A stretch of DNA of 64,000 nucleotides, taken from contig JAJDEO010000002.1 of assembly GCA_029259745.1 (NCBI GenBank), positions 53,787 through 117,786 of the forward strand, in the 5' to 3' direction. The position numbers and the translations under genes are program-made. The stretch is from Planctomycetota bacterium (lineage in GTDB: Bacteria; Planctomycetota; B15-G4). Under the pieces are notes generated by a model. That model did not search any database, was not told the DNA's origin, and saw nothing but the letters and a program-made list of their open reading frames with translations. Below, piece after piece: positions 9,881 through 46,953 of this stretch. Numbering within the stretch: position 1 is the stretch's first letter; every line of letters starts with the position of its first letter.

Positions 9881-9957
9881 TGGTCGGGGTGACTGGATTC
9901 GAACCAGCGACCTTCTGCTCCCAAAGCAGACGCTCTACCAAACTGAGCCACACCCCG
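9881..9957 (-). tRNA. tRNA-Pro (anticodon TGG) with encoded CCA
   Basis: Hand-folded cloverleaf: acceptor CGGGGTG/CACCCCG, D-stem GCTC/GAGC, anticodon stem TCTGC/GCAGA with loop TTTGGGA, T-arm GCTGG-TTCGAAT-CCAGT, discriminator A, then CCA. Confidence 0.85.
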
Positions 9958-11476: not shown

Positions 11477-11989
11477 CTACAAGTAGCGCGAGTTGATGAC
11501 GTTGATGTGGTGCCGTTCGTGCCCGGCGATGAGGTACGGGATCGAGCGCGCCGACGTCGCGAGGCCGTTGCAGGTGCCGCGCTGCTTCCAGGCCGTGTCG
11601 TCGAAGCTGCGCAGCAGCGTCAACGTGGCGTGACGCACCATCGCCCACTCCGTTTCGATCGAGGCCAGCGTGCGCTCATCGTGGCGGGCGGAGCTGATCC
11701 ACGCGTCGTGATCGAAGCCGGGCAGTGATCCCGTCTCGCCGCGGCCGATGCTCAGCACGCGGTACGCGAAGACGCGCTCACAGTCGCTCAAGTGTCCGAG
11801 GACCTCGCGGATCGACCACTTGTCCGGCGCATACCGAAAGCCGGCCCGCGTCTCCGAGAGACCGCCGATGAGTTCACGTCGCTCGTCGAGCTGCGCCTCG
11901 AGCACCCGAAGCACATCGTCCTCGGGCACGAGATCAACGTAGGGCTGAAAGTACTCGGCGTGATCCGTCGGAGCCGGTCGAGTCAACAT
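11477..11989 (-). CDS. DinB_2/DinB-YfiT-like family protein (four-helix-bundle metalloenzyme family)
   Basis: LGHLSDCERVFAYRV and IAGHERHHINVI histidine motifs in a 170-aa protein. It lies downstream of lexA on the same strand. Confidence 0.6.
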   Translation of the reverse strand: MLTRPAPTDHAEYFQPYVDLVPEDDVLRVLEAQLDERRELIGGLSETRAGFRYAPDKWSIREVLGHLSDCERVFAYRVLSIGRGETGSLPGFDHDAWISSARHDERTLASIETEWAMVRHATLTLLRSFDDTAWKQRGTCNGLATSARSIPYLIAGHERHHINVINSRYL

Positions 11990-12239
11990 GATCGAGATCC
12001 TTCCTGAGCGTTCGCCGAAGCGTATCAGCCTCGCCTGGGCTTCTCACAAGGATCTGCTGCGGACGTACTTCTGCCTTCGTGCGACGTCGGAACGTCACGT
12101 CTGATCCTCAGCGACCCGACCCGAGCCGCCCTCCGGGCAGAAGCACCGCGACGCCTTGCAACGAGGGCCAGGCGTGGCCGCAACAGGTCCTGTGAGGTAT
12201 CCGGCCTGACGCCCCCTTGGCTCCCTCGAGCATGCACTG

Positions 12240-12560
12240 CGCTAGCAGGGTGTTGACGAGCTGCTTCGGATGAGCTGTGCGTGGCCGGGTGCTCCTGAAC
12301 GCGCGTTGAAGAACTCGTTCGGCGCGCGGCACGCGCCCCGCGGCGCTCGCAACAACCCACCCGTTCCTCCGACCCATACACCGCCAAAGCAGGGTGTTGA
12401 CGAGCTGCTTCGGATGAGCTGTGCGTGGCCGGGTGCTCCTGAGAGCGCCTGCAAACGCAGGCGAATCTTCAGATTCGTCGAGGCTTTCAGGCACTCTCAG
12501 GAGTGCCCGGACGCGTGCAGATCGCCGAATCAGCTCGTCAACGCCCTGCGACTAAAAGAC
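12240..12560. repeat. Cluster of nested, structured intergenic repeats (REP/MITE-like), locus A
   Basis: An exact 55-bp direct repeat agcagggtgttgacgagctgcttcggatgagctgtgcgtggccgggtgctcctga occurs at about 12245 and about 12389. It carries the gttgaagaactcgttcgg module, the hairpin module aacgcaggcgaatcTTCAgattcgtcgaggct, and an inverted partial copy near 12518-12549. Confidence 0.8.
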
Positions 12561-12723
12561 GCGGCCCGAGGTTGGTGAAACCCCGAGCCGCGTCAGCATT
12601 GCGAGGGCCGCGGGAGGGAGGGGAATGCGGCCCTAGATCGCAGATGATGGGATCCCGCGAGGGATCGCGTGTCGCTGTGCCTTGGCGTCGTGACGATGTC
12701 ACATGGCGACGCTCGCCGTCCCG

Positions 12724-13332
12724 TCAGATCCTCGTGCGGATGACGCCGATCAGCTTGCCCGTCACCTCGACGTGCGAGACGAGGATCGGTTCCATGGCAT
12801 CGTTGGCTGGCTGCAGGCGTATGTGGTCGTGTTCGCGGTAGAAGCGCTTCAACGTGCTGCGCTTGCCGCCCGTGTCTTCGTCGTCGAGCATCGCGACGAC
12901 GATGTCTCCGTCGCGCGCCGACGTCGTGGGCTTGATCACCACGAGGTCACCGGGACAGATGTGGTCGTTGATCATCGACTCACCTTCGACGCGCAGCAGG
13001 AAGCAGCCGTCGTCGGCGCTCGCGAGATCGTCGAGCGTGAACGTCTCGGTGTCTTCGATCGCCTCGATCGCAGCACCAGCCGCGATGCGCCCCTTGACCG
13101 CGAGCTGCGAGCTGCCCGTCACCTCGTCTTCGACGAGCGTGATCGACCGCGCCATGTTCGGCGTCTTGCGGATCGCACCCTTCTTCTCCAGCGCGTTCAC
13201 GTGCTCGTAGATCGTGATCTTCGAGACGCCGAAGAACTGCGACATCTCATCGAGCGTGGGTGAGACGCCCTTGTCCTCGATGTAGTCGCGGACGAAGTTC
13301 AGGACGGCAAGCTGCTTCTCGGTCAGGAACAT
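12724..13332 (-). CDS. lexA: LexA repressor (SOS transcriptional regulator, S24 peptidase)
   Basis: N-terminal winged HTH LTEKQLAVLNFVRDYIEDKGVSPTLDEM..KGAI and C-terminal autoprotease VEGESMI..ICPGDLVVIKP with KRF. Clean ATG start. Confidence 0.9.
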   Translation of the reverse strand: MFLTEKQLAVLNFVRDYIEDKGVSPTLDEMSQFFGVSKITIYEHVNALEKKGAIRKTPNMARSITLVEDEVTGSSQLAVKGRIAAGAAIEAIEDTETFTLDDLASADDGCFLLRVEGESMINDHICPGDLVVIKPTTSARDGDIVVAMLDDEDTGGKRSTLKRFYREHDHIRLQPANDAMEPILVSHVEVTGKLIGVIRTRI

Positions 13333-22110: not shown

Positions 22111-22752
22111 GTGTTCACCGGGATCATCGAGAACCCCTGCCCGCTCGTCGAGACGCGCGAGCTCGAGGGCCGCCGCCGGCTCATCGTCGACCTGGCACCG
22201 ATCCGGGCCTACGACGCGGGGCCGGCCGAGCGCCCGCTCGCGGCCTTGGGTGACAGCATCGCGATCAACGGCTGCTGCCTCACGGTGGTGGCTCTGACGG
22301 GGGATCAGGCCAGTTTTGACGTGATCCCCGAAACGCTCGAGCTCACGTCACTGGGCGGGTTGAAGGTCGGCACGCGCGTGAACGTCGAGCGGGCGATGGC
22401 CTTCGGTGACCGCATCGACGGGCACCTCGTCCAGGGCCACATCGAGGGCACGGGCACCGTGATCGTGTCCGAGGACCAGGGCGGACAGTGGTGGCTGAGC
22501 GTGGATTGTGGCAAAGATTTCGCGGCGCGGACGCTCCACAAGGGTTCCGTCACCCTCGACGGCGTGAGTCTGACGGTGGCCGAACTGACGGCCGACAGCG
22601 TCGCCGTCGCCCTCGTCCCGCATACCCTCGAGCGGACAGTGCTCGGGGAGCGTCGGGTGGGTGATCGGGTGAATCTCGAGGCCGATCTGATCGGTGGCTG
22701 GGTCCGGCGGACGGTTGAGGGCATGGGGTTGGAGATTCGTCGGGGGACGTGA
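22111..22752 (+). CDS. Riboflavin synthase (alpha subunit)
   Basis: (M/V)FTGIIE N-terminus with two lumazine-binding repeats (AINGCCLTVV.., SVTLDGVSLTVAEL). GTG start preceded by GGAGG. The track ORF starts earlier at 21979. Confidence 0.85.
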   Translation: MFTGIIENPCPLVETRELEGRRRLIVDLAPIRAYDAGPAERPLAALGDSIAINGCCLTVVALTGDQASFDVIPETLELTSLGGLKVGTRVNVERAMAFGDRIDGHLVQGHIEGTGTVIVSEDQGGQWWLSVDCGKDFAARTLHKGSVTLDGVSLTVAELTADSVAVALVPHTLERTVLGERRVGDRVNLEADLIGGWVRRTVEGMGLEIRRGT

Positions 22753-23145
22753 GGGGTGGTTGTCCGCCGGCGGCGGTCGACGGGGACATCGTTGCTCAGG
22801 CACGCCTCGTGGCGTCGGTGGGATCTCGGGACGGTGGTGAGGGCGGCGTGAAGTCGCTGCCGATGTCCCCGTCGACCGCCGCCGGCTCGGTGGGCGTGAG
22901 TCGTGGCGTGCCCGCGACGGAGTCGGGGGTGTGGTGGAGGTGGTGCTCGGGGCGGAGGTTCGGTCGTCGTGCGCTGGAGCGCGCGTGGAGTCGATGATCC
23001 TCGGGGACGGGCGGTGCCGGGCGGGCGCGCTGCGCTGGGGGGCTCGTTCGTGGGCGTCTCGTTCGCGCGACTGAGTTGTTGAGCTCGTTCGCTTGGCGAG
23101 CGAGGATCGGATGGTCATCCGTTCGCACTCATTCGAGGATTCGCC

Positions 23146-26915: not shown

Positions 26916-27427
26916 GCGCCTGGGAGCGGGCACGCGCCGCCCTCGGTCCGCGACCGAGCCGCGTGACGGTGCTGTGCACGGGCAACATCTGTCGCTCGCC
27001 GATCGCCGAGGTGCTCTTGAGTGAACGCCTCGCCGATCTCGGCGTCACGGATGTCGAAGTCGGCTCGGCCGGAACCCATGCGCTCGTCGGCTCGGGGGCC
27101 ATGCCCGAGGCTGTCGCGGCGGCTCATGAGCACGGCGGCGACGCGTCGCAGCATGTCGCGAGCCAGCTCGATGAGTCTGTGGCGGCGGCATCAGGGCTGC
27201 TGCTCTGCGCCACCGAAGGCCACCGCGGCTACGTGCTCGCGCACTTCGGCCACCTCGACGCGGCCCGCGCGCGATTGTTCAACGAGCCGATCGACGACGG
27301 TGACATGCCGCTCGACGTCGACGACCCCTACGGCCTCGACGGTGACGTCTATCGTCTCGTCGGCAACGTCATCGCGCGTGCGATGGAGGCCTGGGCCGAG
27401 CGCATCGCCAAGTGGCCGCCGGCTTGA
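26912..27427 (+). CDS. Low-molecular-weight protein-tyrosine phosphatase
   Basis: P-loop VLCTGNICRSP (C-X5-R) and DDPYG aspartate motif. ATGA overlap with the upstream glycosyltransferase. Confidence 0.8.
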   Translation: MSAWERARAALGPRPSRVTVLCTGNICRSPIAEVLLSERLADLGVTDVEVGSAGTHALVGSGAMPEAVAAAHEHGGDASQHVASQLDESVAAASGLLLCATEGHRGYVLAHFGHLDAARARLFNEPIDDGDMPLDVDDPYGLDGDVYRLVGNVIARAMEAWAERIAKWPPA

Positions 27428-27433
27428 CGGCCT

Positions 27434-27502
27434 GTCGAAGAACTGTTCCGAGTGCGACGGGCGTGCTCGGGTGCGTGCGACGCGCCGGATGACTTCTTCA
27501 AC
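27434..27502. repeat. REP-like imperfect palindromic element (locus B of the repeat family)
   Basis: gtcgaagaactgttccgagtg ... ctcgggtgcgtgcgacgcgccggatgacttcttcaac. The two arms are partly reverse-complementary (gaagaa/ttcttc). It fills the convergent gap between the phosphatase and the EamA transporter. Confidence 0.7.
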
Positions 27503-27508
27503 ACGCTG

Positions 27509-44557: not shown

Positions 44558-46953
44558 CCGCCCGCCTGCTACTCGCCGTCTTTGCGACGGCGCTCATCGC
44601 CTTTGCCATCGGTCGCATCTCGGCACCTGATCCCGCGCGAGGAGCGCCGGCGAGCGTCGATGAACACGCGGGTCACGACCACGCGGCCATCGAAGCTGGC
44701 GCAGATTCCGTGGCGACGCTCTGGACCTGTCCGATGCACCCGCAGATCCAACTTCCCGAGTTCGGCGACTGTCCGATCTGCGGCATGGACCTCGTGCCGC
44801 GCGCGGCCGGCGGCGACGATGACCCGCGGCGCCTTGCCATGTCACCGGCCGCCATCGCCTTGGCAGGAATCATCAGCGAGCCGGCGCGTCGCCGCAACGT
44901 CACGCGTCCGGTGCGCATGGTCGGCAAGATCGACTACGACGAAACCGCCGTGCGCACGATCTCGGCCTGGGTCGCCGGTCGCCTCGAGCGGCTGTTCGTC
45001 GACGCGCAGGGCGTCCCCGTGGCACGCGGTGACCACCTCGTTTCGATCTACAGCCCCGACTTGCTGCTCGCGCAGGATGAACTCCTCGTGGCAAAGCGCG
45101 AACTGGCCGGCATCACGTCGGCGACGTCGGAGTTCCTCGCCGAGTCGACGCGCGGAGGGTACCGCGCGGCCCGCGACAAGCTCCTGCTCTTCGGCCTCAG
45201 TGCGGGGCAGGTCGACGAACTCGAGCGTCGCAGCGTGGCCGACGATCACGTGCTCATCAACTCGCCCTCGTCCGGCGTCGTCATCGACAAGCTTGTCGAC
45301 GAAGGTGCCTACGTGCGGGTGGGCGAGCCGATCTATCGCATCGCCGACCTCTCGCGCCTCTGGGTGTTGCTCGACGCCTATGAGCAAGACCTCCCGTGGG
45401 TGCGCTACGGTCAACCGGTGCGGCTCGAGGTCGAGGCCATGCCGGGGCGCATCGTCGAAGGCACGGTGTCCTTCGTCGACCCCTTCATCGACGAGCACAC
45501 GCGCACGGCGAAGGTGCGCGTGCAGGTCGACAACTCCACCGGGTTGCTCAAGCCGGGGATGTTCGTGCACGGCGTCGTCCTCGCGCGGTTGGGTCCTGGC
45601 GGCGCGCTGATCGTCGACGACGTGGCGGGCAAGTGGGTCTCGCCGATGCACCCCGAGATCGTCAAGGACGGGCCGGGTGTATGTGATGTGTGCGGCATGG
45701 ACCTCGTGCCGGCCGAGGAACTCGGCCTCGTGTCCGAGCCGTCCGACGGCGAGCGCCCGCTCGTCGTGCCGCGCAGCGCGGTGCTCGTCACCGGAGTGCG
45801 CGCGATCGTCTATGTCGACGTGCCAGGCGCGGAGCGTCCGACGTACGAGGGACGCGAAGTCGTGCTCGGCCCGACGGCCGGTGACGACGTCATCATCATG
45901 GACGGACTCGAGGAGGGCGAGCGTGTCGTCGTCAACGGCGCCTTCCGCGTCGACAGTGCGATGCAGATCGTGGCCAAGCCGAGCATGATGTCGATGCCGG
46001 GCGAACGACGCGCGCCGAGTGGACCGCACGTCGCGGTGTTCGTCGAGTCGCTGGGAGCCGTGTACGACGCCGCGTTGGCGTTGCAGGTGGCGCTGGCGGG
46101 GGACGACGAGCTGGCCGCGCGTGCTGTCTTCGTCGAACTCGAGACGGTGCTCGATGCGCCGATCGCTTCGGGGCTCGCGGCCAGCGAGCGTATGATCTGG
46201 AGCGAAGAGCGCGCGCGTCTGGTGGGCGCAGTGCGCGAGGCCCGGCGCGCCGCAGACATCGGCGAGCTACGGGTCGCGTTCGAGCACGTCTCGTTGTCGG
46301 TGCTGACGCTGGCGCTCGAGTTCGGCCACGATCGCCCCGGCGTGCTCATCGAGGCGCACTGTCCGATGGCCTTCGATGATCGCGGCGCGAGCTGGCTCCA
46401 AGCCGGCAGCGAGATTCTCAACCCGTACTTCGGCGCCGCGATGTTGCGCTGCGGCGACGTGCGCACGCAGCTCGGTGATGTGTCACATGCGACTCCGACG
46501 GTCGAGGAACACGAGCACGCGGAGCCTGGCGCGCATGCGCCACACGGCCCGGCTTCCGAGCTCTTCGAGGCATATCTGGTCTTGCAGGAAGCGCTCGCTG
46601 CCGACGCTGCCGCGGTTGCCGAGCAAGCGGCAGAGGCGTTGCACGCGGCGGCCGAGGCCGCCGGTGCCGACGACGTCGCGTCCGTCCTCGCGCGGCGCGC
46701 TGAACGGTCCTCTGACATCCAAGGGCTGCGCGTGCTGTTCGCGCCGATCTCGGAAGCCATGATCGCGCGGGTCGGTCGCGCGGGGCAACCGCTGGGCGAG
46801 ACGTTGCACGTCGTTCACTGTCCGATGGCCTTTGACGATCAGGGCGCGAACTGGATCCAACGGGAGCGCACGGTCGCCAACCCGTACTTCGGCGCCTCGA
46901 TGTTGCGCTGCGGGCGGGTCACCGAAGATCTCGAGCCGGCGGGTGACCGATGA
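44554..46953 (+). CDS. RND efflux periplasmic adaptor (CusB/CzcB-like) with heavy-metal-binding and DUF3347-like repeats
   Basis: Two CPMHP..CP(I/V)CGMDLVP metal-binding modules, an HlyD-like core, and C-terminal tandem repeats HCPMAFDD(R/Q)GA(S/N)W(L/I)Q...NPYFGA(A/S)MLRCG. ATGA overlap with the upstream gene. Confidence 0.75.
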   Translation: MTARLLLAVFATALIAFAIGRISAPDPARGAPASVDEHAGHDHAAIEAGADSVATLWTCPMHPQIQLPEFGDCPICGMDLVPRAAGGDDDPRRLAMSPAAIALAGIISEPARRRNVTRPVRMVGKIDYDETAVRTISAWVAGRLERLFVDAQGVPVARGDHLVSIYSPDLLLAQDELLVAKRELAGITSATSEFLAESTRGGYRAARDKLLLFGLSAGQVDELERRSVADDHVLINSPSSGVVIDKLVDEGAYVRVGEPIYRIADLSRLWVLLDAYEQDLPWVRYGQPVRLEVEAMPGRIVEGTVSFVDPFIDEHTRTAKVRVQVDNSTGLLKPGMFVHGVVLARLGPGGALIVDDVAGKWVSPMHPEIVKDGPGVCDVCGMDLVPAEELGLVSEPSDGERPLVVPRSAVLVTGVRAIVYVDVPGAERPTYEGREVVLGPTAGDDVIIMDGLEEGERVVVNGAFRVDSAMQIVAKPSMMSMPGERRAPSGPHVAVFVESLGAVYDAALALQVALAGDDELAARAVFVELETVLDAPIASGLAASERMIWSEERARLVGAVREARRAADIGELRVAFEHVSLSVLTLALEFGHDRPGVLIEAHCPMAFDDRGASWLQAGSEILNPYFGAAMLRCGDVRTQLGDVSHATPTVEEHEHAEPGAHAPHGPASELFEAYLVLQEALAADAAAVAEQAAEALHAAAEAAGADDVASVLARRAERSSDIQGLRVLFAPISEAMIARVGRAGQPLGETLHVVHCPMAFDDQGANWIQRERTVANPYFGASMLRCGRVTEDLEPAGDR

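Follow-up and report, generated by a model that had tools for sequence, protein, structure and literature searches.

An apparently undescribed 159-bp hairpin element, very probably an IS5-derived MITE, forms the repeat cluster beside lexA in a Planctomycetota genome

ERIC sequences are imperfect palindromes of ~127 bp that lie in intergenic DNA; between distantly related genera their sequence is conserved, especially at the centre, whereas they occupy different positions. The element described here is likewise an intergenic imperfect palindrome with a conserved centre, but it occurs in a different phylum, is unrelated in sequence, is associated with a 4-bp CTAG duplication, and has a candidate parent family of insertion sequences (IS). 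Bacterial MITEs derived from IS include Correia/NEMIS of Neisseria, Nezha of cyanobacteria, and RUP (PMC3733652). These are non-coding, measure 70–300 bp, form long hairpins, carry terminal inverted repeats and a short target duplication, have their ends in common with an autonomous IS, and are dispersed in intergenic DNA, and the present element agrees with them in all of these respects. Unlike the known MITEs, it is almost fully palindromic, one of its strands systematically folds better than the other, and its central hairpin is conserved across classes of Planctomycetota and recurs in a modified form in an alphaproteobacterium. Within the IS5 family, a 4-bp repeat TTAA has been reported for ISKpn26 (PMC10569121). 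IS5 elements of the ISDisp1 type (NF033581; DUF772 and DDE_Tnp_1) resemble the element in their terminal CAGGCCGTTGAAAAA(GTGCTT) and in a 4-bp CTAG/CTAA duplication, whereas the element has no transposase gene, is 159 bp instead of 1.3–1.5 kb in length, and has two arms that are both like one IS end only. The ISDisp1-type relatives are proteobacterial, and no planctomycete parent was found in the window or at 57 further loci. REP sequences have been described as palindromes of 20–40 nt that bear a terminal GTAG or CGTC tag, are linked to a Y1 transposase, and have flanks that are not duplicated (PMC3733652). The REP/BIME/REPIN repeats with their RAYT are, like the element, intergenic, palindromic, clustered, and thought to act as single strands; the element differs from REPs in size, in the absence of the tag and of a Y1 link, and in its duplicated flanks.

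The window analyzed is a stretch of 64,000 nt from a Planctomycetota bacterium (contig JAJDEO010000002.1, positions 53,787–117,786). An initial annotation had described a nested repeat cluster (locus A) between the genes for LexA (12724–13332, minus strand) and a DinB_2 protein (11477–11989, minus strand), both of which were recognized with Pfam. Its description of the repeats was accurate. The exact 55-bp duplication, with a spacing of 144 bp, is present (12244–12298 = 12388–12442) and is embedded in a 74-nt repeat of 91% identity. The GTTGAAGAACTCGTTCGG module lies at 12305–12322 and the two small hairpins gcctgcAAACgcaggc and gaatcTTCAgattc at 12449–12476, the flanking inverted repeat GGGTGCTCCTGAGAG / CTCTCAGGAGTGCCC belongs to an inverted repeat of 53 nt, and the inverted partial copy downstream was found at 12525–12549 with 23 of 25 matches. 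The recurrences noted at 27.43 and 35.56 kb are related copies at 27428–27508 and 35553–35711. Arm patterns of 25 and 30 nt had an expected number of matches of 0 in shuffles, and the repeat features of locus A are not of chance origin. The natural unit, however, is a near-perfect hairpin element of ~159 bp and not the 55-bp repeat; the modules listed earlier are its arms and its apex, and at locus A several copies and pieces of this one non-coding element have piled up.

Two full copies (A and C), one internally deleted copy (B), and two fragments at locus A (A' and A'') are present in the window. Fragment A' (12246–12298, plus strand) is a solo left arm consisting of the first 53 nt of the element; it is identical to the left arm of copy A and has at its outer end the tetramer CTAG (12242–12245), the consensus 4-bp target and the commonest flank in 59 copies. 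Fragment A'' (12299–12345, minus strand) is an incomplete right arm from another, oppositely oriented copy and includes GTTGAAGAACTCGTTCGGCGCGCGGCACGC; the right-arm pattern GCGTGCNNNNCGCCGRAYSANYTNNTCAAC matches it at 12305–12334 on the minus strand. Copy A (12390–12548, plus strand) has the full length of 159 bp, its apex motif at 12457–12483, and degenerate flanks (AAAG / CGAC). Copy B (27428–27508, plus strand) has been reduced to 81 bp, with ~30 nt of the left arm and 46 nt of the right arm but without the apex, and its right-arm part has 89% identity with that of copy C. It occupies the entire gap between the convergent stop codons (TGA at 27425–27427, TCA at 27509–27511) of a low-molecular-weight phosphatase gene and an EamA transporter gene. 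The flanks of copies A and B are not direct repeats. Copy C (35553–35711, plus strand) is again of full length, 159 bp, with its apex motif at 35620–35646, and lies between a DEAD/DSHCT helicase gene and a gene for a PLP-dependent decarboxylase. Its left flank CCAG (35549–35552) is one base off its right flank CTAG (35712–35715), the first three bases of which are the TAG stop codon of the helicase gene on the minus strand. Positions 12388–12549 and 35551–35712 are 71% identical over 162 nt, with the loop TTCA in copy A and GGTG in copy C. The 15 nt upstream of A' (12231–12245, CATGCACTGCGCTAG) and of copy A (12375–12389, CATACACCGCCAAAG) are alike at 10 positions, and the next 55 nt are identical, which suggests that the segment was duplicated and that the element portion later underwent conversion.

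The terminal inverted repeats of ~25–30 bp begin with CAGnCCGTTGAAGAAnT, and the arms pair over their whole length. In the window and in most lineages the terminal repeats read CAGnCCGTTGAAGAA... / ...TTCTTCAACGGnCTG, and with its flanks the element runs from CTAG-CAG to CTG-CTAG. The termini have the form CAGnCCGTTGA or, in individual subfamilies, TGGTGTGTCGC and GAGTCTGTCC. The central hairpin consists of an 8-bp stem GGCGAATC/GATTCGTC with a variable loop of 4–6 nt, a 3x3 internal loop GCA/GAG, and a closing C-G pair. Secondary-structure prediction, which the initial annotation had proposed, gave RNA folds of −125.3 kcal/mol for the plus strand and −106.6 for the minus strand of copy A (z-score −13.3), and −124.1 against −87.3 kcal/mol for copy C (z-score −13.0). 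Changes of the "compensatory" kind were seen at 32 of 42 arm pairs. The earlier claim that differing loops over conserved stems are typical of a selected structure held in part: the loops do differ and the stem is invariant in the two window copies, but from the window alone the argument for selection is weak, and real covariation occurs only in the arms and in an alphaproteobacterial cousin of the element. The element has no coding capacity, and no frame is preferentially open across 58 copies (22–39 of 58 open in every frame). A peptide RRRIxGFVE, encoded in one apex frame, was considered and rejected; only 26 out of 58 copies have this frame open, which does not exceed the counts for other frames, and synonymous variation is absent. 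Two hybrid copies (L056, 1498–1665; L047, 5200–5367) have the left arm of one subfamily and the right arm of another joined at the apex, which suggests recombination between subfamilies at the conserved centre.

The genome-wide search that had likewise been proposed covered 185,579 species genomes; its query was the central 27-nt motif GCAGGCGAATC-N4-GATTCGTCGAGG, and it yielded 57 further copies. Of these, 56 are in genomes labelled as Planctomycetota or its orders and families, and the remaining one is in a MAG labelled only "bacterium". Each of the 57 places is a hairpin element of ~165 nt. Kolteria novifilia Pan216 (NZ_CP036279.1) has 16 exact-apex copies spread round its 7.6 Mb chromosome, together with decayed ones, and the further hosts include several Phycisphaerales MAGs and other MAGs; Co_bin.47 (JAUILN01) is among those with many near-identical copies. 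The right-arm pattern, which matches all four arms of the window, had zero matches in the 185,579 species genomes; the arms are lineage-specific. No apex was found in viral contigs. Invariance of the apex in the 57 copies is by construction, as the apex was the search key. Its conservation is not: the arms diverge greatly between genomes and the apex does not, and the two window copies, despite their overall identity of 71%, have 14+14 apex bases in common. Extra copies recovered via their arms have an apex decayed by 1–3 substitutions; since single copies can lose it, the constraint on the apex acts on propagation and not on each locus. A second MITE family with other termini, GCTTCGTCTCAAAAGTTGATCG...ACTTTTGAGACGGAGC between two CTAG tetramers, was observed in K. 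novifilia (L039, 6791–6964; L046, 6600–6772; end of L033). Its apex core is that of the first family, CAGGCGAATC-N5-GATTCGTCGA with a 5-nt loop, and in L046 it abuts a first-family copy. A literature search for the element sequence, or for such an element in Planctomycetes, gave no match. Among Rfam covariance models, only tRNA-Pro passed the gathering threshold in the window, and no family matched the element; at the E-value threshold only generic long-hairpin (miRNA precursor) models matched, far below their cut-offs. The tRNA-Pro (anticodon TGG; 9881–9957, minus strand) is the only Rfam or ARAGORN match in the window. The element thus belongs to a family that is spread through Planctomycetota genomes and is apparently undescribed.

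Target-site duplication was evident from the flanks of the 59 copies, in which 4 nt are duplicated with the consensus CTAG; TTAG and CTAA are also common, in keeping with YTAR-type targets as expected for an IS5-family derivative. Scripted comparison found identical flank 4-mers in 25 of 58 copies, where permutations gave a mean of 13.3, and 27 were counted when the alignment was read by eye. Identical pairs other than CTAG numbered 8 (TTAG four times, CTGG, CTTG, CGAG, and TCAA) where 0.94 were expected, and none of 100,000 permutations reached 8. A TA-only duplication of the IS630 type was ruled out: the partner of TTAG is always TTAG or something close to it and in no case CTAG, and the duplication is therefore 4 bp and not TA. 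Abutting copies with one common CTAG are present in L018, L046, and L054. Approximately 23 of the 59 copies adjoin the stop codon of a neighbour, as judged from crude ORF calls. A helicase orthologue of 86% identity ends in ...GGG TAG, and the element is absent behind its stop codon. Downstream gene order on the orthologous contig differs from that in the window, so the comparison shows presence and absence of the element and not a clean empty site. In this 86%-identical relative (L058, 8215–9993, compared with 35421–35712 of the window), a 592-aa gene of the beta-lactamase family lies between the helicase and decarboxylase genes, where the window has only the MITE.

When a Phycisphaerales copy was compared with plasmids by BLAST, the matches fell exactly on the termini of IS5-family elements. 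Over its first 21 nt this copy (L019) is identical to the end of ISDisp1 (21/21), a 1321-bp element of a Diaphorobacter plasmid that has the termini CAGGCCGTTGAAAAAGTGCTT...TTTTTCAACGGCCTG, or in a longer reading CAGGCCGTTGAAAAAGTGCTTTTCG ... GGGGATTTTTCAACGGCCTG, between two CTAA tetramers. Its transposase of 362 aa matches the IS5-family model NF033581 of NCBIfam with 318 bits and contains PF05598 and PF01609. The same termini with CTAG duplications occur in a 1543-bp IS of S. meliloti SM11 and in a degenerate IS of 1273 bp in R. etli. Similarity between element and IS is confined to ~21–30 terminal nucleotides, with BLAST E-values that alone amount to 0.04–0.1; the match carries weight because it sits exactly on the IS termini and goes with the same type of duplication. 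The two MITE arms are similar to that end of the IS which is distal to the transposase start (AAGTGCTTCG, AAGTCATTCG); neither is similar to the leader end. In addition, the Rhizobiaceae IS has a hairpin CGCAGACGAAGC-CT-GAATCGTCTCCG located 27 nt inside the distal end. This hairpin agrees with the apex in 18 of 24 positions, a level of agreement that 3 of 5000 shuffles attained. No ISDisp1-like transposase (tblastn) and no full-length IS with these termini was found in the window or at the 57 planctomycete loci. The best 120 matches of a transposase protein search all had at least 65% identity, and every one with a named source was proteobacterial; a mobilizing enzyme in the phylum is accordingly deduced from proteobacterial elements. 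Near the copies there is no multi-copy or recurrent gene, and no genes of at least 80% identity are common to different loci; the only recurring neighbours belong to paralogue-rich families (sulfatases, histidine kinases, and DUF1559). A parent with a gene at the position of the loop was also sought and rejected: a metagenome scan for the left half-apex without the right half gave 109 matches, all of them chance matches in coding DNA with the exception of three copies with loops of 5–6 nt.

Terminal identity with IS5-family elements, together with the CTAA/CTAG duplications, identifies the element with high confidence as a MITE derived from an IS5-family insertion sequence, and locus A as a pile-up of such MITEs. 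This was one of the options named in the initial annotation, and both the 4-bp target-site duplication and the terminal inverted repeats common to IS5-family IS bear it out. To judge from the termini, an ISDisp1-like DDE transposase most likely mobilizes the MITE in trans. Such an enzyme, encoded elsewhere, would bind the terminal repeats, cut at YTAG with a 4-bp stagger, and insert the element. Tetramers containing TA are rare in this genome of 67% G+C outside stop codons and spacers, for which reason the element would land between genes and in many cases at a TAG stop codon. As every insertion re-creates CTAG at the two ends of the element, further copies could land beside old ones, giving rise to clusters such as the pile-up at locus A, and later deletions and duplications would leave fragments such as A' and A''. 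The likeness of both arms to the distal IS end makes it probable that the element originated by fold-back of the transposase-distal end at the subterminal hairpin. If fold-back took place separately in different lineages, the "compensatory" pairs of the arms need no selection. A double-stranded DDE mechanism leaves the strand-specific folding and the conservation of the core across phyla unaccounted for.

The position of the cluster between lexA and the DinB_2 gene had led to the suggestion that it influences their transcription or termination, and a locus-specific SOS element, acting as a LexA operator, a terminator, or a promoter module of the DinB_2 gene, would fit that position. SOS boxes have the form CGAAC-N4-GTTCG, and the apex palindrome CGAATC-N4-GATTCG has a similar layout. 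As an operator, however, this palindrome was rejected, since GAATC-N4-GATTC is restricted within the window to two element copies and is missing upstream of lexA. The lexA gene has its own canonical intrinsic terminator on the minus strand (12594–12558 plus a T run, within 12552–12594; a G+C-rich stem of 16 bp, a 5-nt loop, and TTTT), which ends directly before the right end of copy A; it separates the lexA stop codon from the cluster and so places the cluster beyond the lexA transcript. The other copies, in the window and at the 57 loci, flank unrelated genes. An SOS role is extremely unlikely on this evidence, and the presence of the element at the lexA locus is incidental. The initial annotation had also named REP/BIME-like elements, and a REP/BIME/REPIN-type repeat mobilized in single-stranded DNA form by a HuH transposase of the Y1 type (a RAYT, or the "class 3" TnpA_Y1 found mainly in Planctomycetes) would account for a palindromic, intergenic repeat that folds strand-specifically. 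In Planctomycetes, repeated hairpins flank the class 3 Y1 genes (PMC6006769), and Y-transposases are abundant in R. baltica (PMC3733652). The class 3 hairpins that have been published (e.g., CCGAGCCGCGACCGTAAGGGAGCGGA) are nevertheless unrelated in sequence, no Y1 gene lies beside any copy, and the element has no GTAG, CGTC, or CnGA foot, measures 159 bp against the 20–65 nt of REPs, duplicates a 4-bp flank, shows no replichore bias of orientation among the 16 Kolteria copies, and has termini identical to those of DDE elements of the IS5 family. Membership in the REP group is very unlikely for these reasons.

The strand asymmetry bears on another possibility, that the MITE is also a functional single-stranded module, with a forward transcript from its own promoter and a hairpin core that would be bound by protein or serve as a regulatory RNA acting, for example, on the IS5 transposase. 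In 58 of 58 copies the better fold is that of the forward strand, defined by the apex sequence GCAGG..., with a mean difference of −22.6 kcal/mol, and the forward strand keeps this advantage in 58 of 58 (mean −17.4 kcal/mol) when the apex is swapped for a neutral stem-loop. Predicted arm pairs include 99 G.U against 29 A.C, and a direct arm-to-arm count gave 360 G.U against 215 A.C; the excess is very strong in the high-G+C subfamilies, but the Kolteria and IP29b subfamilies have almost none by the direct count. Orientation relative to the gene whose stop codon is touched was forward in 10 cases and reverse in 13, and no bias was seen with respect to local GC skew or, among the 16 Kolteria copies, to replichore, so that the asymmetry is independent of the orientation of neighbouring genes and of the replichore. 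Aureimonas sp. AU20, a member of the Alphaproteobacteria, has a homologous hairpin element of 165 nt in at least 12 copies on three replicons (plasmid loci L170, 2466–2636; L173; L174), with the termini GAGGCTGTTTGGAA. This cousin retains AAGGCGCCAAA-CGCAG ... CGAGGATTGGCAACG, the C-G pair, and the 3x3 loop GCA/GAG, while its apical stem is a different complementary pair, UCGAUGCC/GGCAUCGG, and its folding is asymmetric as well (−97.5 against −70.7). Asymmetry and conserved core together point to a single-stranded form of one defined strand. Transcription from within, leading to selection on the RNA or to a C-to-T bias, or some other single-stranded step would be the likeliest cause, and to this extent the asymmetry hints at the small-RNA option of the initial annotation. 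A functional module of this kind would explain the retention of the core in both Planctomycetota and Alphaproteobacteria as well as the preservation of a good fold on one strand only. Against it, a scan of 11900–12800 that does not cover planctomycete promoters found no sigma-70-type promoter, the only terminator in that interval is the one of lexA and none lies within the element, and the element has no Rfam family. Moreover, single copies lose the apex by ordinary decay, which places the constraint on propagation, and covariation in the arms is possible without selection if elements were born by fold-back in each lineage. A function of the single strand in addition to mobility is possible but rather unlikely.

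Two further repeats in the window were recorded. A perfect 26-bp inverted repeat GCCGGCGGCGGTCGACGGGGACATCG (22766–22791 and 22861–22886, spacer 69 nt) lies just past an ORF ending at 22752 and is unrelated to the MITE. Two direct repeats 459 nt apart (46357–46454 and 46816–46913; 87% and 97% identity) look like an internal tandem duplication of ~0.46 kb.

Recognition of the cluster as a pile-up of MITEs removes a suspected regulatory element from the lexA/DinB_2 locus. The element confuses gene callers, as spurious ORFs run through copies and many copies supply or overlap stop codons, and it may affect neighbouring genes. It also marks insertion hot spots and sites of rearrangement. Overall, the element is ordinary in kind, with two notable features, the strand-specific fold and the core conserved across phyla, and these make a tractable puzzle. 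K. novifilia Pan216 is cultured and has at least 16 copies, so that RNA-seq and transposition assays are feasible, and the element offers an entry point to the study of IS5-family activity in a phylum for which genetic tools are few.
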